Shown one piece after another: positions 30,500 to 37,458 of a stretch of 48,532 nt of DNA. The stretch is taken from positions 1 through 48,532 of the IMG/VR virus record IMGVR_UViG_3300031860_000003; one strand, written 5' to 3'. How positions within the stretch are numbered: position 1 is the stretch's first letter; every line of letters starts with the position of its first letter. Origin of the DNA: a virus (lineage: Duplodnaviria; Caudoviricetes). The position numbers and the translations under genes were made by a program. The notes under the pieces are model-generated. The model did not search any database. It saw only the letters and a list, made by a program, of their open reading frames with translations, and had not been told where the DNA came from.

Positions 30500-32078
30500 C
30501 GGTTTCCTTCCGCCATTCGTTGAGGGTGTCGTCGTCGGGCCACTCCCACACGGTCGGATCGCCGACCTCGGGAGGCGGGTTGTTCAGCAGCCACACCGCG
30601 CCGCAGCAGGCGATCACCGGGGAGGCGTCCACCGGGGAGGTGCGCCGGTCGAAGAACCAGGCGTCTCCGACGCGGCGTGCCGGAGTGGACGCGGCCGCGC
30701 GATCCAGCACGGGGGCCGGTCGGTGTTTGATGGACCCGTCCACGATGCCGTCGTAGAACTCCCCGGCCCCGGCCGCGAGCTGGGCCACCGGCGCGCCCCA
30801 GTCGGTGATGGTGATCCCCACCGCGCGCAGGTCGTCGGCCAGCCCGGACACCGGCGCGTTGGTCTTCTGCAGGCAGACGCCGGCGAACTTGTCCTTGCGG
30901 GTCTTCAGCCAGTCGGGCAGCCAGCCGGTGCCCTTCGGCGGGGTCTTGATCACCTCGATGTGGATCTTCCCGTCGGACCGCCGCGACGCCACCCCGACGT
31001 AGGCGCGGGTGCGGTGGTAGTTGTACTCGATGCAGGCGTAGGCCGGGGATTCGGGATCGCGCTTGGACTCCTTGTCGACGGTGTCCTGCCACGCCTGGGC
31101 CGGGATGATGCCCGGCAGCAGCGAGTCGACCCACTGGCAGAGATATTCCGTGCGGAAGCCCGGCATGTCGTCGGCTTCCATGTTCTCGAAATGCGCCCGC
31201 AGGTCGTCCAGGCAGAACTCGTTGAGCAGCCCCAGGGCCGGGTTGGCCAGATACCAGTAGCGGTCGTCGCGCGGGTCCACGTCCTCGGGCACCGACCACT
31301 CGAAGAACCCGGTCTGCGTCTCGGCGGTGTCGCCGAGCGTGATCTTGCGCACCGCGACGGTGCGCAACTCCTTGAGCTTGACGGAGCTGTTCTCCCCGGC
31401 GTTGGAGGTCGCCAGCACCTGGCTGCAGATCCGCACGTTGGTGGTCGGGGTGACCGCGTTCCAGGCGTCCGGGGTGGTGTGCGTGCGCAGCTCGTCGAGC
31501 CAGGCGAAGTCCACCGAGAGCGAGCGGCCGCCCTTCTTGTTCGCCGTCGCCGCGCGCCAGTAGCGCCGGTAGCTTAAGATCGCGCGGTGCTTACCGTTGG
31601 TGACCCGGTGATTCAGCAGCTCGGGCGCCAGCAGCGGCTGGTCGCGGATCTCGTCGACGATGTCCTTCAGGGTGGTCTCGGCGTAGTCGAGGTTCTGCGC
31701 GGCCACCACGGCCAGCCGCGCGGCCGGCCACTCCGCGCACGGCCGGCCCTTCTTGTCCATGAACAGCCGCCACAGCCCCAGCCCCATCCCCCACTTGGTC
31801 TTCCCGTTTTGCCGGGCGACCAGGATGATCAGGTAACGGAACCTGAAACCCGTTCCGTTGCGGCGCTTTTCGAGCGCCCGGTAGTACAGCCACTTCTGCC
31901 ACGGCAGCAGCTGCCACTTGAGGATGTTCTCCAGGAAGTAGCAGCACAGCGGGCCCCAGGTGGCCTCGGGGCGGATGCCGAACTCGGCGGTCTCATCGAC
32001 GTGCTCGGGCAGCGGCGGGGTGAACAGCCGCGGGAGCGTGGAACCGACATAGGGATCGGCCTGCAGGACTGCACTCAC
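30477..32078 (-). CDS. terL: Terminase large subunit
   Basis: Walker A ARQNGKT, Walker B AWLDELR, TSNAG, ANPALG and FRTEYLCQWV. Confidence 0.95.
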   Translation of the reverse strand: MSAVLQADPYVGSTLPRLFTPPLPEHVDETAEFGIRPEATWGPLCCYFLENILKWQLLPWQKWLYYRALEKRRNGTGFRFRYLIILVARQNGKTKWGMGLGLWRLFMDKKGRPCAEWPAARLAVVAAQNLDYAETTLKDIVDEIRDQPLLAPELLNHRVTNGKHRAILSYRRYWRAATANKKGGRSLSVDFAWLDELRTHTTPDAWNAVTPTTNVRICSQVLATSNAGENSSVKLKELRTVAVRKITLGDTAETQTGFFEWSVPEDVDPRDDRYWYLANPALGLLNEFCLDDLRAHFENMEADDMPGFRTEYLCQWVDSLLPGIIPAQAWQDTVDKESKRDPESPAYACIEYNYHRTRAYVGVASRRSDGKIHIEVIKTPPKGTGWLPDWLKTRKDKFAGVCLQKTNAPVSGLADDLRAVGITITDWGAPVAQLAAGAGEFYDGIVDGSIKHRPAPVLDRAAASTPARRVGDAWFFDRRTSPVDASPVIACCGAVWLLNNPPPEVGDPTVWEWPDDDTLNEWRKETDERFNEQ

Positions 32079-32263
32079 TCGCCGTGCCTCGCGTACCGGT
32101 CGAACTCCCGGTCATCCTTGTTGGTCCAGTTCAGCGACTTGTACAGCGCGCGCCGGGCCTCCGACTCGCGGGCCTCGGCCATCGCCTCGTCGACGAGCTC
32201 GCGGAACGGCGCGAACACAAGCCGGCACAGTGCGATGACCGCATCACACAACAACCTGCGCAC
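32075..32263 (-). CDS. Hypothetical protein (62 aa)
   Basis: GTGA overlap with the terL start. Confidence 0.5.
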   Translation of the reverse strand: MRRLLCDAVIALCRLVFAPFRELVDEAMAEARESEARRALYKSLNWTNKDDREFDRYARHGE

Positions 32264-32345
32264 GGGGTAATGGTCCCGCGCTAGTTTCCGTTACTGGGGT
32301 CAAGCACATTCCCCGGCGTGTCGCATTTCGCTTTACGCGAAACAG

Positions 32346-32421
32346 TAGCGCGGGTCGGATTCGAACCGACGATTGCTTGGTTATGAGCCAAGAGGGATAG
32401 GCCTGGCTTCCCTACCGCGCT
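32346..32421 (-). tRNA. tRNA-Met(CAT)
   Basis: Cloverleaf; anticodon loop CTCATAA. Confidence 0.9.
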
Positions 32422-32423
32422 CG

Positions 32424-32495
32424 CTGAGGTGCCTGGACTCGAACCAAGATCAACGGAGCCAGAGTCCGTTGTGCTGCCGTTTACACCACACCTCA
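32424..32495 (-). tRNA. tRNA-Gln(CTG)
   Basis: Cloverleaf; loop CTCTGGC. Confidence 0.9.
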
Positions 32496-32499
32496 TTCG

Positions 32500-32572
32500 C
32501 TGACCTGGGAGGAGTCGAACCTCCAACTACTGGATTAACAGTCCAGCGTTCTGCCAGTTGAACTACAGGCCA
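32500..32572 (-). tRNA. tRNA-Asn(GTT)
   Basis: Cloverleaf; loop CTGTTAA. Confidence 0.92.
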
Positions 32573-32576
32573 CCGG

Positions 32577-32649
32577 CGCCTCCTGCCGGGATCGAACCGG
32601 CGATCTCCTGGATGAGAGCCAGGTGAGATGACCGCTACTCCAAGGAGGC
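32577..32649 (-). tRNA. tRNA-Glu(CTC)
   Basis: Cloverleaf; loop CTCTCAT. Confidence 0.9.
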
Positions 32650-32650
32650 G

Positions 32651-32723
32651 TGATTCCGATCGGACTCGAACCGATGTCGTCCGGCTTGAAAGGCCGGCAG
32701 GCTAACCGCTACCCCACGGAACC
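32651..32723 (-). tRNA. tRNA-Glu(TTC)
   Basis: Cloverleaf; loop CTTTCAA. Confidence 0.9.
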
Positions 32724-32727
32724 GGGG

Positions 32728-32799
32728 TGCGCCCGGTCGGGCTCGAACCGACGTCTCAGGATTAAAAGTCGAGAGCTAAACCATCTCAGCTACGGGCGC
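32728..32799 (-). tRNA. tRNA-Lys(TTT), two anticodon-stem mismatches
   Basis: Loop CTTTTAA; stem CTCGA/TCCTG. Confidence 0.82.
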
Positions 32800-32841
32800 C
32801 TGATTGGGCATGCGTTCAGGCTCCGGTTTACGCTGTCGCAT
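32776..32841 (-). CDS. Candidate leader peptide MRQRKPEPERMPNQAPVAEMV
   Basis: GAAGGAG SD, TATACT -10 at 32876-32881; codons match the downstream tRNAs. Confidence 0.7.
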   Translation of the reverse strand: MRQRKPEPERMPNQAPVAEMV

Positions 32842-32907
32842 TTCAGGCTCCTTCCGTGCTCGGGATGTCGCGTTGAGTATAACCTCCCACCGCGCCACAC
32901 TGGCGCA

Positions 32908-33954
32908 ATGGACGCTCAATCCCCGCCGCCGCCGGCGATCCCCGCCGATGACGACGAGCTGCACCAGATGCTGGTCGCCAAATTCCGCAGCCGCACCATC
33001 AGCTCCTGGGCGCTCACCGCACCCGCCATCCCCAGCCTGATCGACGAGTACATCGACACATGCGACAAGATGCTCGTCCCGGTGTCCCGGCCCTGGGCGT
33101 CGTTGACCCGCGAGGACAAGCGCGACATGCTCGCGCCCACCATCCAGGAGGCATTCGACGCCTCCCCCCGGTCGCGCGTCACCCTCGACTGGGATTCCAA
33201 CACCGACGTCCTGCGTATCTCCGCGCGGGTCCAGAGCATCAGCGACAGCTACGACTCCTGGCTGGACGATCGCGGCTGGGCCCCGTTCGGCACCCACGCC
33301 GACGCGCGCGTGTGGCTGTTGGCCGAAGAACTCTCGGGGGGCCGGCGCGACATCCCCATCCTGGACATCGGCGCCGGCGTCGGCCGCAACGCGATCGCGC
33401 TGGCCCGGCACGGCTACCCGGTCGATGCGGTCGAGCTGGCCCCGCGGTTCGCCGCGCAGATCCGTGCCAACGCCGACTACCTGGAGCTGACCAACATCCG
33501 CGTCCTGGCCTGCGACGTGTTCGACACCGAGGACCTGCGCGACGACTATCAGCTGATCTTCGCCGCCGAGGTGGCCACCGACTGGCAGTTCGCCCAGTGC
33601 CGCAACCTGTTCGAGCTCGCCGCCAAGCGGTTGGCTCCCGGTGGCCTGCTGCTGTTCTCCGCGTTCATCGCGCGGCAGGGTTACACCCCCACCCAGGTGG
33701 CGCGCGAGCTCGGCCAGCACGCCCTGTGCCGCCCGTTCACCGCCGACGAGATGACCGAGGCGGCGGCGGGCCTGCCGCTCGAGCTGATCGCCGACGACTC
33801 GGTCTACGACTACGAGAAGGGGCACCTGCCCAAGGAGGCGTGGCCGCCTGCAATATGGTTCGAGGCTTGGGCCACCGGCAACAACCTGTTCGCCGGCGCG
33901 CCCGATGCGTCCCCGATGCAGCTGCGCTGGCTGGTCTACCGGCGCAACTACTGA
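32908..33954 (+). CDS. Class I SAM-dependent methyltransferase
   Basis: ILDIGAGVGRN motif I, VDAVEL and LAPGGLL; high GC3. Confidence 0.9.
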   Translation: MDAQSPPPPAIPADDDELHQMLVAKFRSRTISSWALTAPAIPSLIDEYIDTCDKMLVPVSRPWASLTREDKRDMLAPTIQEAFDASPRSRVTLDWDSNTDVLRISARVQSISDSYDSWLDDRGWAPFGTHADARVWLLAEELSGGRRDIPILDIGAGVGRNAIALARHGYPVDAVELAPRFAAQIRANADYLELTNIRVLACDVFDTEDLRDDYQLIFAAEVATDWQFAQCRNLFELAAKRLAPGGLLLFSAFIARQGYTPTQVARELGQHALCRPFTADEMTEAAAGLPLELIADDSVYDYEKGHLPKEAWPPAIWFEAWATGNNLFAGAPDASPMQLRWLVYRRNY

Positions 33955-33976
33955 GTGTCCACGGGGTGGACACCTG

Positions 33977-34046
33977 CTGCTCCGCCAGGATTCGAACCTG
34001 GACAACGAGAACCAAAATCTCGACGGCTGCCGGTTACCACGGAGCA
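33977..34046 (-). tRNA. tRNA-Gln(TTG), shortened D arm
   Basis: Loop TTTTGGT; intact T and acceptor arms. Confidence 0.8.
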
Positions 34047-34047
34047 G

Positions 34048-34117
34048 TGCCCCCGAGTGGAGTCGAACCACCGCAACCGAGTTTCGGAAACTCAGGGCCA
34101 GATCCGCTGGCGAAGGC
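34048..34117 (-). tRNA. tRNA-Arg(CCG), atypical D arm
   Basis: Loop TTCCGAA; D hairpin CCAG/CTGG directly abuts the acceptor stem. Confidence 0.7.
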
Positions 34118-34148
34118 TAATTGCGAATTCCGAAATTGGAAATTAGCG

Positions 34149-34222
34149 CCCCGCCGGAGGGATTCGAACCCCCATTTCATGGCTTAGAACACCACCGCTG
34201 ATCCAGATTCAGCTACGGCGGG
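34149..34222 (-). tRNA. tRNA-Arg(TCT)
   Basis: Cloverleaf; loop GTTCTAA. Confidence 0.82.
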
Positions 34223-34271
34223 CAGGCGAGACTGAGCGTTGTCGCCTTCGTCTCGCCTGCCGTCGCATCAT
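34209..34271 (-). CDS. Candidate leader peptide MMRRQARRRRQRSVSPARRS
   Basis: GGTGAGG SD; uses all six Arg codons and both Gln codons. Confidence 0.7.
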   Translation of the reverse strand: MMRRQARRRRQRSVSPARRS

Positions 34272-34350
34272 GACCTCACCTAACCGAACCAGACCACAGC
34301 CTGCCGTGCCCTATCATGCCCGACCTTGCCAGACCTATCCGGACCGGACC
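34271..34350 (-). repeat. GGY-NN pentamer array 2 (13 of 16 units perfect)
   Basis: Minus strand GGTCC GGTCC GGATA GGTCT GGCAA GGTCG GGCAT GATAG GGCAC GGCAG GCTGT GGTCT GGTTC GGTTA GGTGA GGTCA. Confidence 0.88.
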
Positions 34351-34371
34351 ATACGGCATCACATCACTGCG

Positions 34372-34444
34372 TGCCCTCACGAGGAATCGAACCCCGGGCC
34401 TCCTGGTCCGTAGCCAGGCGCTCTCTCCGCTGAGCTATGAAGGC
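34372..34444 (-). tRNA. tRNA-Arg(ACG)
   Basis: Cloverleaf; loop CTACGGA. Confidence 0.9.
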
Positions 34445-34445
34445 G

Positions 34446-34519
34446 TTCCTGCTCCTGGGATCGAACCAGGGTCCTTCTCCTTATCAGGGAGCTGCCCCTA
34501 CCAACTGGGCCAAGCAGGA
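34446..34519 (-). tRNA. tRNA-Ile(GAT)
   Basis: Cloverleaf; loop CTGATAA. Confidence 0.88.
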
Positions 34520-34520
34520 C

Positions 34521-34595
34521 TGGCGACCCATACGGGGAACGATCCCGCGACCTCCGGCTTGACGGGCCGGCGCTCTACCACTGAGCTAATGAGCC
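34521..34595 (-). tRNA. tRNA-Asp(GTC), encoded CCA
   Basis: Loop CCGTCAA; T loop ATCGTTC. Confidence 0.85.
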
Positions 34596-34671
34596 AGGTG
34601 GGCAACTCCCCTCCGACGAGAGGGGCGGCAGTTACCAGATCCGTAGCTGGGTTCGCCGATGGTAGTTACCC
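34596..34671 (-). ncRNA. Unknown structured RNA, copy A
   Basis: Fills the Gly-Asp spacer; homologous to 35673-35769. Confidence 0.55.
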
Positions 34672-34672
34672 G

Positions 34673-34745
34673 AGCACCCGACGGGCTACGATCCCGCGGC
34701 CTCCACGTTGGCAACGTGGCGCTCTGCCTGCTGAGCTACGAGTGC
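34673..34745 (-). tRNA. tRNA-Gly(GCC)
   Basis: Loop TTGCCAA; T loop ATCGTAG. Confidence 0.88.
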
Positions 34746-34774
34746 CTGCGCTTCGCTGATTCAGTTATTGTACG

Positions 34775-34850
34775 AGCCGCAGACAGGAATCGAACCTGCG
34801 CTCTGCTTGCTTACAAGGCAAGTGCTACAGCCAACATGAGCTACTGCGGC
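34775..34850 (-). tRNA. tRNA-Thr(TGT)
   Basis: Cloverleaf; loop CTTGTAA. Confidence 0.88.
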
Positions 34851-34853
34851 CTG

Positions 34854-34926
34854 TGCGCTCGGCAGGGATCGAACCTGCGGCCTGAAGATTAAGAGTCAAC
34901 AGCTCTACCGACTGAGCTACGAGCGC
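34854..34926 (-). tRNA. tRNA-Lys(CTT), two anticodon-stem mismatches
   Basis: Loop CTCTTAA; stem GTTGA/TCTTC. Confidence 0.85.
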
Positions 34927-34985
34927 GGATCAACCGGGGCGGTCGTCGGCTTTCGCCGCCCCTGTGTGCGCGTTCGTCGCATCAT
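34917..34985 (-). CDS. Candidate leader peptide MMRRTRTQGRRKPTTAPVDPRS
   Basis: AAG plus four Thr codons directly upstream of tRNA-Lys(CTT) and tRNA-Thr(TGT). Confidence 0.6.
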   Translation of the reverse strand: MMRRTRTQGRRKPTTAPVDPRS

Positions 34986-34986
34986 G

Positions 34987-35058
34987 TGTCCCGAGCAGGT
35001 ATCGAACCTGCGGCCTCCACCGTGTCGGGGTGGCGCTCTCCCGCTGAGCTACCAGGAC
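34987..35058 (-). tRNA. tRNA-Val(GAC)
   Basis: Cloverleaf; loop CCGACAC. Confidence 0.87.
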
Positions 35059-35139
35059 GGGGCCCAGGCTTTTGATGACGGTGAACCTGAGCCCGAAACA
35101 CCGGACGGTCAAGTCTCGTGGCGCCACGGCTTGACCCAG

Positions 35140-35211
35140 TGTCCCGTCGTGGTATCGAACCACGGGCCTCCTGCGTGTGAAACAGGCGCTCTCCCGCTGA
35201 GCTAACAGGAC
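35140..35211 (-). tRNA. tRNA-Val(CAC)
   Basis: Cloverleaf; loop TTCACAC. Confidence 0.88.
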
Positions 35212-35212
35212 G

Positions 35213-35285
35213 TGCCAAGACGTGGAATCGAACCACGGCCTCCGGCTTTTCAGACCGGCGCTGCTACCAACTGAGCTATCGAGGC
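35213..35285 (-). tRNA. tRNA-Phe(GAA)
   Basis: Loop CTGAAAA; two acceptor-stem mismatches. Confidence 0.83.
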
Positions 35286-35286
35286 G

Positions 35287-35360
35287 TGGACCAGGGCGGA
35301 TTCGAACCGTCATCCGTCTCCTTGCAAGGGAGCTGCTCTGCCAATTGGAGCTACAAGCCC
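35287..35360 (-). tRNA. tRNA-Ala(TGC)
   Basis: Loop CTTGCAA; G3:U70 identity pair. Confidence 0.88.
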
Positions 35361-35450
35361 GTATGAAGTTGGGTCCGGTCCTTCGCGTCTTTCGTTCCGG
35401 CTACCCCCACCGAGGTCTGACCTCGCGCTGGTGGACGAGGGGCGCTAGCG

Positions 35451-35521
35451 AGCGGATGACCGGAATCGAACCGGTGTCGGCAGCTCGGAGGGCTGCTGCG
35501 CGGCCACTACGCCACACCCGC
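35451..35521 (-). tRNA. tRNA-Gly(TCC)
   Basis: Loop CCTCCGA; U73. Confidence 0.85.
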
Positions 35522-35596
35522 TGGGGTAACCGACCGGAATCGAACCGGCGTCCTCGGGGCCACATCCCGATGCTCTGCCATTGAGCTACGACTACC
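35522..35596 (-). tRNA. tRNA-His(GTG), G-1:C73 and encoded CCA
   Basis: Cloverleaf; loop ATGTGGC. Confidence 0.9.
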
Positions 35597-35597
35597 G

Positions 35598-35669
35598 AGC
35601 GCCCGGCGTGGGTCGAACACGCTTAAGCGGGTTTGCAGCCCGCCACCTGATCCGTTCGGTCACAGGCGC
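35598..35669 (-). tRNA. tRNA-Cys(GCA)
   Basis: Loop CTGCAAA; U73. Confidence 0.88.
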
Positions 35670-35672
35670 TTT

Positions 35673-35769
35673 GGTGGTGGCGCTCCCCTCCGGCGAGAGG
35701 GGCGACACGCTCCCCGAGTGGGGAGCTCATACCGGAACCGTAGCCGGATTGGCCGTTGGTAGCGTCACC
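35673..35769 (-). ncRNA. Unknown structured RNA, copy B
   Basis: Homologous to 34596-34671 with an extra hairpin; starts 7 nt after TGGACC-N17-TACCGT. Confidence 0.55.
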
Positions 35770-35816
35770 GTGTACCACGGTAAACCCTGCCGCCGACAAG
35801 GTCCATCCATTTTCCG

Positions 35817-35897
35817 TACCGGCAGCAGGAGTCGAACCTGCACAGCTCACGCCACGGATTTACAGTCCGCTTCCCTCGCCACATGGGATGCGCCGGC
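35817..35897 (-). tRNA. tRNA-Tyr(GTA)
   Basis: Loop CTGTAAA; extended variable arm. Confidence 0.88.
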
Positions 35898-35898
35898 G

Positions 35899-35969
35899 CA
35901 CGCTCCCCAGGAATCGAACCCAGACCAAGAGGTTTGGAAGCTCTTGTGCTACCACTACACCAGGAGCGC
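35899..35969 (-). tRNA. tRNA-Trp(CCA)
   Basis: Loop TTCCAAA; G73. Confidence 0.85.
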
Positions 35970-35973
35970 CTCG

Positions 35974-36047
35974 TCGGGGAGGCAGGATTCGAACCTGCGA
36001 TGTCTTGATCCCAAATCAAGTGGGCTGCCTGGCTGCCCTACACCCCG
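35974..36047 (-). tRNA. tRNA-Pro(TGG)
   Basis: Loop TTTGGGA; C1-G72, A73. Confidence 0.9.
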
Positions 36048-36080
36048 GTTTGGTCCCGGCGTGTGTCCACGACCGGGCGG

Positions 36081-36116
36081 CTAGCGCCAGGGATACGGTC
36101 GTGGGGCGAAGAACAT
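36081..36116 (-). CDS. Candidate leader peptide MFFAPRPYPWR
   Basis: TATGAT 7 nt before the ATG (leaderless spacing); Pro/Tyr/Trp codons upstream of tRNA-Pro, -Trp and -Tyr. Confidence 0.72.
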   Translation of the reverse strand: MFFAPRPYPWR

Positions 36117-36132
36117 GGTGATCATCATAGCG

Positions 36133-36204
36133 TGCGCTTCCAGGGATTCGAACCCTGACTGGGCCGGGTTTAAGCCAGCTGCCTCTGCGTTGGGCTAGAA
36201 GCGC
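36133..36204 (-). tRNA. tRNA-Leu(TAA), short variable loop
   Basis: Cloverleaf; loop CTTAAAC. Confidence 0.85.
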
Positions 36205-36205
36205 G

Positions 36206-36278
36206 TACACCCTCTGGGATTCGAACCCAGACTTGACCGGGTTTGAGCCGGATGCCTCTCCCGTTGGGCTAAGGGTGC
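36206..36278 (-). tRNA. tRNA-Leu(CAA), short variable loop
   Basis: Cloverleaf; loop CTCAAAC. Confidence 0.85.
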
Positions 36279-36284
36279 TTGCCG

Positions 36285-36358
36285 TACTCCCGGTGCGATT
36301 CGAACGCACACTGTCTGGTTCCTGAGACCAGTGCTTCTGCCAGTTGAGCGACGGGAGC
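36285..36358 (-). tRNA. tRNA-Leu(CAG), short variable loop
   Basis: Cloverleaf; loop CTCAGGA. Confidence 0.85.
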
Positions 36359-36387
36359 AGGTTTCTTGTTTCTTTGTTTCGTAAAAG

Positions 36388-36476
36388 CGGAGGGCGGAGG
36401 TCATGCTCCCCGAGCGCCATCACGCGCTACCCGGTATTCGACGCCGGTCGCAGGCTATCCCGCTGCTTCACCCTCC
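36388..36476 (-). tRNA. tRNA-Ser(CGA), atypical T arm
   Basis: Loop GTCGAAT; long variable arm AGCGC/GCGCT; T arm lacks TTC. Confidence 0.7.
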
Positions 36477-36477
36477 G

Positions 36478-36562
36478 AGGAGGGCTACGGGATTGAACCG
36501 TAAGCGGTGAGGCTTGCTCGGGTTAGCAACCCGGCTCCGGCGACCAACCGGAAAAGCCCTCC
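36478..36562 (-). tRNA. tRNA-Ser(GCT)
   Basis: Loop TTGCTAA; long variable arm. Confidence 0.82.
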
Positions 36563-36566
36563 AGAC

Positions 36567-36614
36567 TTAGCTAAGTCGTAAGGGACTAGATGACAGCAAT
36601 CGGTGGTCGCGCAC
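36567..36614 (-). CDS. Candidate leader peptide MRDHRLLSSSPLRLS
   Basis: TACACT 7 nt before the GTG; 8 Leu/Ser codons upstream of the Ser/Leu tRNAs. Confidence 0.75.
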   Translation of the reverse strand: MRDHRLLSSSPLRLS

Positions 36615-36631
36615 GTCAAGCAGTGTAGCAG

Positions 36632-36699
36632 TGCCGCACAAGGGATTTGAACCCTTCCCGTTCGCTTGGTTAGGGCTCACGGTCTGCCGTCGGTGCGGC
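36632..36699 (-). ncRNA. tRNA-like element or pseudo-tRNA
   Basis: Perfect 7-bp acceptor and AAGGG-TTCAAAT-CCCTT T arm; no canonical anticodon arm. Confidence 0.5.
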
Positions 36700-36776
36700 T
36701 TTCCAGCGGTGCTCCATAAACGTCAGCATCAGATACCAGCGCAGGGCCCGCCAGCGCATGGCCCACCACTCGGACA

Positions 36777-36929
36777 TCAGCACGCCAGCCTGGGGATGTT
36801 GATGCACCTGCACAAGTAGTACATGTCGTCATCCTCGGTCAACTCAGCGGCGGTGCCGATCTCGATGCCCTCGCTGTCGTAGATCACGCTGACGTCGGGC
36901 ATCATGCCCATCGTCACCAGCCCGTTCAC
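36777..36929 (-). CDS. Hypothetical protein (50 aa)
   Basis: GTGA-coupled; high GC3. Confidence 0.5.
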   Translation of the reverse strand: MNGLVTMGMMPDVSVIYDSEGIEIGTAAELTEDDDMYYLCRCINIPRLAC

Positions 36930-37009
36930 AGGCGCCCGCTTTTCTGCAGGGCCGCCACCAGGAAGTACAGCAGGATCAAGCCGCCGATCACCCCGACCAG
37001 TGTGTTCAC
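36926..37009 (-). CDS. 27-aa single-TM peptide
   Basis: MNTLVGVIGGLILLYFLVAALQKSGRL; overlaps both neighbours by GTGA. Confidence 0.5.
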   Translation of the reverse strand: MNTLVGVIGGLILLYFLVAALQKSGRL

Positions 37010-37458
37010 GTCTCTCCGTTCACCTGTTTGCGCTGCGCGCGGTAGGCCGACAGCTCGTCCAGCACGTCGCCGTCGTCGAGCTCGGCGTCGCTCATCGGCG
37101 GGGTCGGGCCGGCGCTGATCCGCTCGTCGACCATGTCGTAAATCTTGGCCTGGTCGGCCATCAGCCGCCGCGCCACCTCGATCGCCTTGAGGTCGTTGTT
37201 GTCGACGTGGCTCATCGCCTTCTTGACCAGGTGCTCCATCCGGGCCATATAGATCGTCATGGCGTTGGCGTTGCGCAGGATGTGGTCGGCGGCGCAGCGC
37301 TCCAGCTCGGCCTTGATGATCTGGTTGACCCGGGCGTCAGTCAGATTGACCTGCGCGTTGGCACCGATCGTCTTCTGGCTGTGCCCGGCCACGAACAGGT
37401 CCAGGATCAGCGCGTCCCGCTGCTGGCGTTCCTTGCGGGTCAGCGCCCGACCGGTCAT
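37006..37458 (-). CDS. Probable terminase small subunit (N-terminal HTH, helical)
   Basis: RDALILDLFVAGHSQKTIG HTH; DLKAIEVARRL; DELSAYRAQR-type C terminus. Confidence 0.6.
   Translation of the reverse strand: MTGRALTRKERQQRDALILDLFVAGHSQKTIGANAQVNLTDARVNQIIKAELERCAADHILRNANAMTIYMARMEHLVKKAMSHVDNNDLKAIEVARRLMADQAKIYDMVDERISAGPTPPMSDAELDDGDVLDELSAYRAQRKQVNGET

Follow-up and report, generated by a model that had tools for sequence, protein, structure and literature searches.

The tRNA array and its leader spacers

The window, that is, the whole 48.5-kb virus record that was analysed, contains portal, prohead protease and capsid genes and is mycobacteriophage-like, its portal sharing 44% identity with mycobacteriophage portals, e.g. 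that of Courthouse. A 28-gene tRNA array (32345..36562, on the minus strand, as are all the features below unless stated otherwise) adjoins the packaging and head genes. Leader spacers within it have the same layout: an ATG, an anti-tRNA segment, a hairpin and then the tRNA.

The leader of tRNA-Lys(CTT) is a mini-ORF, MMRRTRTQGRRKPTTAPVDPRS plus stop (34917..34985), which begins 1 nt past the discriminator of tRNA-Val(GAC), holds an AAG codon at 34952-34950 and uses U8-A9-G10 of tRNA-Lys(CTT) as its stop; frame and stop are kept in 4/4 arrays. Its anti-tRNA segment (34970..34984) includes an 11-mer extendable to 12 bp with tRNA nt 1-14, and its hairpin (GGGGCGG/CCGCCCC, loop CGA AAG, 34936..34962) is found in 4/4 arrays. 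The first gene past the leader is tRNA-Lys(CTT) (34853..34926, called by ARAGORN and Rfam), followed after 2 nt by tRNA-Thr(TGT) (34774..34850), for which the leader contains the codons ACG/ACA. As read from the sequence, the anticodon stem of this tRNA-Lys(CTT) has two U-U mismatches, and one in L084 and L085.

The leader of tRNA-Arg(TCT) lies behind a Shine-Dalgarno-like AGGTGA (34276..34281), recognized in the sequence and by a rule-based scan. Its mini-ORF, MMRRQARRRRQRSVSPARRS plus stop (34209..34271), ends on a TGA formed by nt 12-14 of tRNA-Arg(TCT) (34148..34222, ARAGORN and Rfam) and contains CGG, AGA (codon 7), AGG (codon 9) and CAA (codon 11), the last three at identical codon numbers in 3/3 Arg leader arrays. 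The anti-tRNA segment (34256..34267) favours a register in which 34267-34260 form 7 bp with tRNA nt 2-9, and a 10-bp hairpin, CAGGCGAGAC/GTCTCGCCTG (34223..34259), ends at nt -1. The rest of the Arg block (33976..34116) consists of an atypical CCG-anticodon tRNA-like gene and tRNA-Gln(TTG). The atypical gene (34047-34116) has a short D-arm and is conserved in L084, L085, L093 and BeanWater, where a similar gene is annotated as Gly(tcc); it was missed by ARAGORN defaults and by Rfam, and called only at a relaxed threshold (34049-34113). Between tRNA-Arg(ACG) and the Arg leader lies a 99-nt stretch of GG-led 5-nt periodic repeats (34272-34370), missing from L085 and L093, which is the source of the Shine-Dalgarno-like motif.

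Two sister leaders were recognized in the same array. The Lys(TTT) leader (32776..32881) comprises TATACT (32881-32876), GAAGGAG (32854-32848) and an ORF beginning MRQRKPEPERMPNQ (32841-32776), in which every one of the 6 tRNAs of the Lys(TTT)-Glu-Glu-Asn-Gln-Met block is represented by a codon. Within it (32800-32860), GGAGCCTGA occurs twice, over the Shine-Dalgarno motif and right after AAA, and either copy is able to pair across the leader-tRNA junction in 4/4 arrays. The Pro leader (36081..36129) has TATGAT (36129-36124), 7 nt and the ORF MFFAPRPYPWR plus stop, followed by Pro-Trp-Tyr. The peptide end RPYPWR plus stop is kept in the Pro(TGG) leaders of 4 arrays (window 36048-36080, L084, L085 and L365), each with a local 6-8 bp hairpin that runs into the tRNA start, past the stop codon.

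The spacers before Asp(GTC) and Cys(GCA) (34596-34671 and 35670-35760) have in common a 25-nt hairpin with 92% identity and a similar upstream segment, with no Rfam match, and structured spacers with no ATG ORF precede Val(GAC) and Ala(TGC) (35059-35138 and 35361-35449), the Ala one being partly conserved in L094. A likely extra Ser tRNA-like gene, uncalled by ARAGORN, is found at 36359-36476, where the equivalent place in L085 is occupied by Ser(CGA), and a CTA-anticodon tRNA-like gene (36631-36699) is called only at a relaxed threshold. Within the array, antisense to it, is a gene for a 348-aa SAM-dependent methyltransferase (Pfam Methyltransf_25; 32908-33954, plus strand), of which L085 has a 58%-identical copy upstream of its array.

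Distribution of the array family

Scans of viral records delineated a family of 5 distinct arrays (the window, L084, L085, L093 and L094), in which near-copies of the window (L039/L080, L078/L081, L128) and duplicate loci were each counted once. The array is missing from the syntenic site in two relatives, L087 and L089, and we thus consider it an optional module; related portal-bearing records contained no tRNAs (0/5). A scan of metagenomes returned one near-copy of the window and unrelated arrays, the latter serving as controls. The Lys-leader pattern was absent from 401 genomes of the phylum of an actinobacterial MAG (0/401) and from 3 further records (0/3), BLAST of the leaders against cultured phages gave chance-level matches only, and a genome scan with a loose pattern yielded mostly ordinary chromosomal tRNAs. 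One locus with a similar motif before tRNA-Lys(TTT), beside apparent aroA and cmk genes (L350), was dropped as a probable chance match, because its motif was the search pattern. Such a leader pattern was not seen in the arrays of Myrna, BeanWater and Francesca. In StAugustine, a cultured M. smegmatis phage (L121 3861-3995, L366), a leader encoding MRTRIIARPLVAPRRRYSRR plus stop, with no CDS annotated, precedes Thr-Ile-Arg-Tyr-Arg-Arg, and a second one, MRFERPPR plus stop, precedes Pro.

Coding features of the leaders

The leaders before tRNA-Lys(CTT) and tRNA-Arg(TCT) are conserved mini-ORFs that are likely translated, as suggested by their length, codon and context features. The distances from ATG to tRNA are 59, 59, 62 and 62 nt for Lys(CTT), 49, 52 and 49 for Arg(TCT), and 42, 39, 42 and 45 for Lys(TTT), and the at least 5 leader indels are all of 3 nt (naive chance 0.004); a 1-nt offset in the hairpin arm of the window Lys leader is compensated before the tRNA. 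Rare codons are concentrated in frame, with 37/188 against 11/184 and 8/181 out of frame in 11 related leaders. The ORF starts 1 nt past the upstream discriminator in 6/6 directly abutting cases, and the other leader starts are preceded by a Shine-Dalgarno-like motif or, at a distance of 6-7 nt, by a TANNNT hexamer.

The codon content of the leaders follows the tRNA content of their array. The cognate codon is present in all 12 Lys(CTT), Arg(TCT), Ile and Lys(TTT) leaders, and coverage of the codons read by the whole downstream block, with block limits set by eye and two odd genes read as Arg(CCG)-like and Arg(CCT), is complete in the four Lys(TTT) leaders (6/6 each, p<=0.0006), the Ile leader of L084 (5/5, p 0.003), the StAugustine Thr leader (6/6, p 0.004) and the Arg leaders (3/3, p 0.05-0.06). 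It is incomplete in the Lys(CTT) leaders (4/6; 3/4 in L084), in Pro (4/10) and in the Glu(CTC) leader of L094, which covers 4/10 and has no Glu codon. For Lys(CTT), a TANNNT shortly before Gly(GCC) in 3/4 arrays could restrict the block to Lys and Thr, both in the leader inventory. Two cases illustrate how inventory tracks tRNA content: L084 has a tRNA-Arg(CCT) and its leader has AGG and no AGA, and the leader of the lone Pro gene of StAugustine has neither Tyr nor Trp codons.

Complementarity between leaders and tRNA starts

An initial annotation of the locus had described the two leaders as antisense to the acceptor strand of the next tRNA, and its counts were confirmed: GCGACGAACGC (34980-34970) forms 9/11 pairs with nt 1-11 of tRNA-Lys(CTT) (nt 1 = 34926), and GCGACGGCAGG (34266-34256) forms 9/11 with nt 1-11 of tRNA-Arg(TCT) (nt 1 = 34222). 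The two tRNAs differ at nt 1, 3, 4 and 5, and on reading the sequences the leaders differ, as had been claimed, at exactly the opposite positions; both pair at tRNA nt 1 and nt 5, each has one mismatch at nt 3/4, and a mismatch opposite A9 is common to both. The further proposal that pairing explains the shared ATG CGA CG start does not hold, since the Lys(TTT) leader also opens with ATG CGA and ATGCGAACGCGA opens a StAugustine leader that pairs poorly (83/276 alternatives as good). Taken from the window only, the complementarity is borderline by shuffles: the probability that a dinucleotide shuffle attains 9/11 is 0.024 for Lys and 0.046 for Arg, these being 2/11 long window spacers, and the 148-nt Arg spacer pairs with tRNA-Tyr at 10/11, better than with its own tRNA, and with Leu(CAG) at 9/11. 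When tRNA starts were swapped, both window leaders outranked all 60 sampled alternatives over the last 100 nt of the spacer, and 8/389 (Lys) and 29/391 (Arg) alternatives were as good from the ATG onward, the Arg leader showing no preference between Lys and Arg starts. The match is therefore genuine, and in the window it exceeds chance by a modest margin; a stronger signal is carried by the homologues.

Among the relatives, own-start fold energies were ranked against 60 swapped starts for 175 spacers of 21 arrays, the control arrays being 16 chosen representatives, with low-GC chromosomal clusters and L122-family repeats left out; such energy tests were used in place of a pair-probability shuffle test, which saturates. 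A percentile <=0.05 was obtained by 4/4 Lys(CTT), 3/3 Arg(TCT) and 1/1 Ile leaders, and overall by 9/17 ORF leaders against 9/158 control spacers (medians 0.04 and 0.56), where leader rows within one type share ancestry. After dropping the Lys(CTT) and Arg(TCT) types, the other 5 leader types still rank low (Mann-Whitney p 0.001), and when ORF leaders were defined by rule the counts were 9/18 against 3/26 in the family (Fisher p 0.007, rows related) and 3/14 in other arrays. Dinucleotide-shuffled leaders were as good as the natural ones in 33/150 (window Lys), 28/150 (window Arg) and 51/150 draws (L084 Lys), and in only 1-6 of 150 for the remaining five leaders. Fresh spacers gave mixed results: the number of alternatives as good was 1/97 (Pro), 19/97 (Glu), 61/97 (Pro) and 62/98 (Leu) for those with an ORF, and 79/98 (Leu) and 0/98 (Ser) for those with none. 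Counted from their ATG, the Lys(TTT) leaders pair weakly, 87-156 of 393 alternatives being as good. As to specificity, Lys starts are bound more strongly than Arg starts by 4/4 Lys(CTT) leaders, the margin being about 7-10 kcal/mol, and the Ile leader pairs more stably with Lys starts than with that of its own tRNA. The Arg homologues reach 11-12 bp, up to tRNA nt 13, through leader bases different from those of the window (7 bp).

Covariation, which the initial annotation had put forward as a check, was looked for in 4 sequences: the Lys helix is paired in 42/48 cells, but double-sided changes were found at 0/12 pairs, and a tRNA change from GCGTC to GCGCT has no matching change in the leader. 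With the peptide fixed, synonymous recoding equals the observed duplex in 11-48% of draws for 7/8 leaders, so that coding and pairing are inseparable there; the window Lys leader alone stands out (0.3% of recoded draws).

Predicted folds, termination and maturation

The proposal that an unoccupied leader misfolds the tRNA fits the homologues, in which the anti-tRNA fold equals or beats the cloverleaf in 6/6 leaders (+0.2 to +8.2 kcal/mol), but not the window, where the cloverleaf wins by 2.0 (Lys) and 3.1 kcal/mol (Arg), these folding energies omitting tRNA tertiary contacts. The RNAalifold consensus is the anti-tRNA fold for Lys(CTT) and the cloverleaf for Arg. In the window, the Lys helix first described has a pair probability of at most 0.10 and a register cost of 1.9 kcal/mol, and the Arg helix first described has a pair probability of 0.0. 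The Arg register of the initial annotation was abandoned: forcing it costs 12.8 kcal/mol, because the 10-bp leader hairpin holds the same bases, and a shifted 7-bp register, in which the hairpin is extended into tRNA nt 2-9, costs 4.0 kcal/mol. In these models, the versions found in the window are the weakest of the leader family. The predicted leader stems are irregular and about 17-25 bp long as read from the folds, and the Lys helix spans nt 2-16, second ATG included. The Arg hairpins end at most 2 nt from the tRNA in all three arrays; in the window, where the hairpin ends at nt -1, nt -4 to -1 are predicted to be single-stranded with p 0.02. RNase P needs about four free leader nucleotides according to PMC7897497, and by that rule the predicted Arg hairpin of the window would hinder the enzyme by itself.

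The initial annotation had noted that no U-tailed terminator follows the leaders, and indeed a scan of 32000-37100 found nothing terminator-like after either of them. That region holds 4 terminator-like sites (2.5 in shuffles), the sole minus-strand one lying within tRNA-Gln(CTG), and tRNA nt 1-35 contain at most 4 T per 8 nt for 8/8 leaders' tRNAs. The mycobacterial polymerase needs a U-tract for intrinsic termination (PMC3993855), and on that basis the missing U-tract rules out intrinsic termination by this polymerase. The suggestion that control acts at maturation rather than termination is thereby favoured as regards intrinsic termination, but Rho or decay are still compatible with the data; for leaders that have no terminator in mycobacteria, Rho-type control has been proposed (PMC1262725). 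The block-wide codon inventories suggest that the output may be wider than one RNase P cut. Rfam covariance models matched the tRNAs and, up to E 10 in 32200-36800, none of the spacers, including models for the T-box, other cis-regulatory RNAs and aptamer-like families.

Modelled ribosome occupancy

Ribosomes were modelled as a blocked 27-nt footprint moved along each ORF, a scheme that leaves out tertiary structure and steric bulk. With no ribosome, the acceptor-stem probability is 0.90 and 0.72 for the window leaders, as against 0.00-0.36 for the 6 homologues. The idea that a stalled ribosome frees the tRNA is reproduced by this model for early positions, codons 2-5 restoring the acceptor stem in 8/8 leaders: with the A-site there, its probability is about 0.9-1.0 in 7/7 Lys/Arg leaders and 0.7, the level of the tRNA alone, in the Ile leader. 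It fails for the cognate codon of Lys, as a stall at AAG leaves the tRNA off in 3/4 Lys models; the modelled probability is 0.0-0.1 in these 3/4 with a single stall and 0.2-0.7 with a queue back to the start. The simple version, in which a stall on the cognate codon frees the tRNA, was not borne out by the model for Lys. For Arg, a stall at AGA gives modelled values of 0.1, 0.4 and 1.0, and for the Lys(TTT), Pro and StAugustine Thr leaders a cognate-codon stall does not switch the tRNA on in the model. All 8 leaders have a CGA among codons 3-6.

A possible tRNA-maturation switch and its alternatives

On these results, we regard as evenly balanced the chances that the leaders are a switch that is set by the ribosome and works through the 5' strand of the tRNA, i.e. 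a form of translational attenuation with the tRNA as output. The unoccupied leader RNA would form a long irregular hairpin that extends into the tRNA that follows and takes up its 5' strand; with a ribosome paused on the earliest codons this hairpin would open, allowing the tRNA to fold and be cut. Fast transit of the ribosome, with the stop codon inside the tRNA, would leave the precursor misfolded or its RNase P site hidden, and the tRNA would be switched on when the first Arg/Thr (or Ile) codons are decoded slowly or when ribosomes queue up upstream of a later stall. Blockage of RNase P by the leader is plausible given the predicted folds. The misfolded state probably limits the downstream tRNAs as well, since the codon inventories of the leaders extend to the entire downstream block; this might proceed by Rho-dependent termination or decay, the least certain step. 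We tentatively propose, as a possibility that we hold with some doubt, the full version of this scheme: a natural tRNA-maturation switch in which leader ORFs sample the codons of their block, the unoccupied leader strand-invades the acceptor and D strands of the first tRNA, and the tRNAs are freed only when decoding falters, for example when host anticodon nucleases cut Lys or Arg tRNAs.

A somewhat unlikely account is that the leaders are translated codon sensors that match the acceptor strand only incidentally, because their Arg/Thr codons (CGA ACG CG) lie opposite a conserved GC-rich tRNA start; their output would depend either on the leader hairpin by itself or on Rho loading or decay governed by the ribosome. 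The outcome of synonymous recoding, not significant in 7/8 leaders, and the lack of covariation (0/12 pairs in 4 sequences) agree with it, as do the ATGCGAACGCGA start present with no good pairing in StAugustine, the weak pairing that accompanies the best inventory (6/6, Lys(TTT)), the three Arg hairpins that all end within 2 nt of the tRNA and the Rho-type control proposed (PMC1262725) for mycobacterial leaders with no terminator. Incidental pairing is less in keeping with a low-ranking leader for each of three different tRNA starts, with Arg homologues that lengthen the pairing through different codons, and with the preference of 4/4 Lys(CTT) leaders for Lys starts by about 7-10 kcal/mol.

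We consider it improbable that the element is a constitutive processing or stability hairpin, such as a site for a double-strand RNase, or that the tRNA strand serves to hide the start codon. The predicted irregular stems of about 17-25 bp, the Lys helix at nt 2-16 that covers the second ATG and the strong anti-acceptor hairpin with no ATG ORF at tRNA-Ser of StAugustine (0/98) would suit such roles, but frame-keeping indels, in-frame rare codons and block inventories would be left unexplained, and a stable helix inside the tRNA would oppose maturation. Little probability is likewise given to a complete lack of regulation, in which GC-rich spacers with fortuitous ORFs and hairpins would have come down from a shared ancestor. 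Only 5 related arrays are at hand, 2/11 window spacers reach p 0.02-0.05, and the Myrna, BeanWater and Francesca arrays have no such pattern, all of which is in line with chance; against it, leaders in the 5 arrays kept frame and codons while neighbouring tRNAs and spacers were swapped or lost, and their inventory tracks tRNA content, as in L084 (Arg(CCT) with AGG, no AGA) and the StAugustine Pro leader, which lacks Tyr and Trp codons.

Comparison with known systems

An Arg-rich short ORF in a tRNA transcript has a precedent in tpr of the E. coli tyrT operon, which lies downstream of the tRNA, unlike the leaders described here, which precede it; to our knowledge, tpr has no known role as a switch. 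Long tRNA arrays known as L-arrays are reportedly controlled by a DNA-binding repressor. The present array is like them in being mobile and in its approximately 28 tRNA genes (PMC8421152), and the title of that report ties one long tRNA array operon to translational stress; the word 'leader' does not occur in its main text.

The trp and ilv attenuators, with actinobacterial cases in PMC1262725, resemble the present leaders in having a leader ORF rich in product-linked codons and competing helices. They differ in that no U-tailed terminator is found here, the genes that would be regulated are tRNAs, and the stop codons of the Lys and Arg leaders lie inside the regulated tRNA. A closer parallel is Ms5788A, a mycobacterial leaderless polycysteine sORF attenuator (bioRxiv 10.1101/834739): in that system, a short ORF with no ribosome on it base-pairs through its RNA to a functional site downstream, ribosome stalling keeps the two strands apart, and no transcription terminator takes part. 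What is masked there is the Shine-Dalgarno of an mRNA, and the sensing concerns a single amino acid (10.1101/834739), whereas here the predicted target is the 5' strand of a tRNA (nt 1-14) together with its RNase P site, and several codons are represented in the ORF; no pairing of the sORF RNA with the Shine-Dalgarno of a downstream protein gene was found, the downstream genes being tRNAs.

The reason for the presence of tRNA genes in phages has long been debated, and one current hypothesis (PMC10264068) is that they offset host defences that cleave tRNAs. If the proposed switch is true, a leader that lets tRNA go only while ribosomes are slowed at the corresponding codons would couple the supply of phage tRNA directly to tRNA depletion. 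A test would be cheap, as leader-tRNA precursors are shorter than 140 nt and StAugustine, a cultured M. smegmatis phage, has a related codon-inventory leader. Searching the full-text literature (titles and starts of abstracts, few subscription papers, no supplements) did not return any natural ORF-controlled pre-tRNA switch, and within the literature searched such control is known in print only for engineered RNAs. In the synthetic RNase P riboswitches, or aptazyme-tRNA switches, of PMC7897497, engineered leaders that pair with the proximal leader or with the 5' part of the tRNA control processing, and the leaders of the window resemble them in having a predicted hairpin in which the proximal leader is hidden or the 5' part of the tRNA is included. 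Those switches are engineered and sense theophylline (PMC7897497), whereas the one proposed here would be natural and set by the ribosome; if it is true, the leaders of this array family would be the natural counterpart of engineered RNase P switches.
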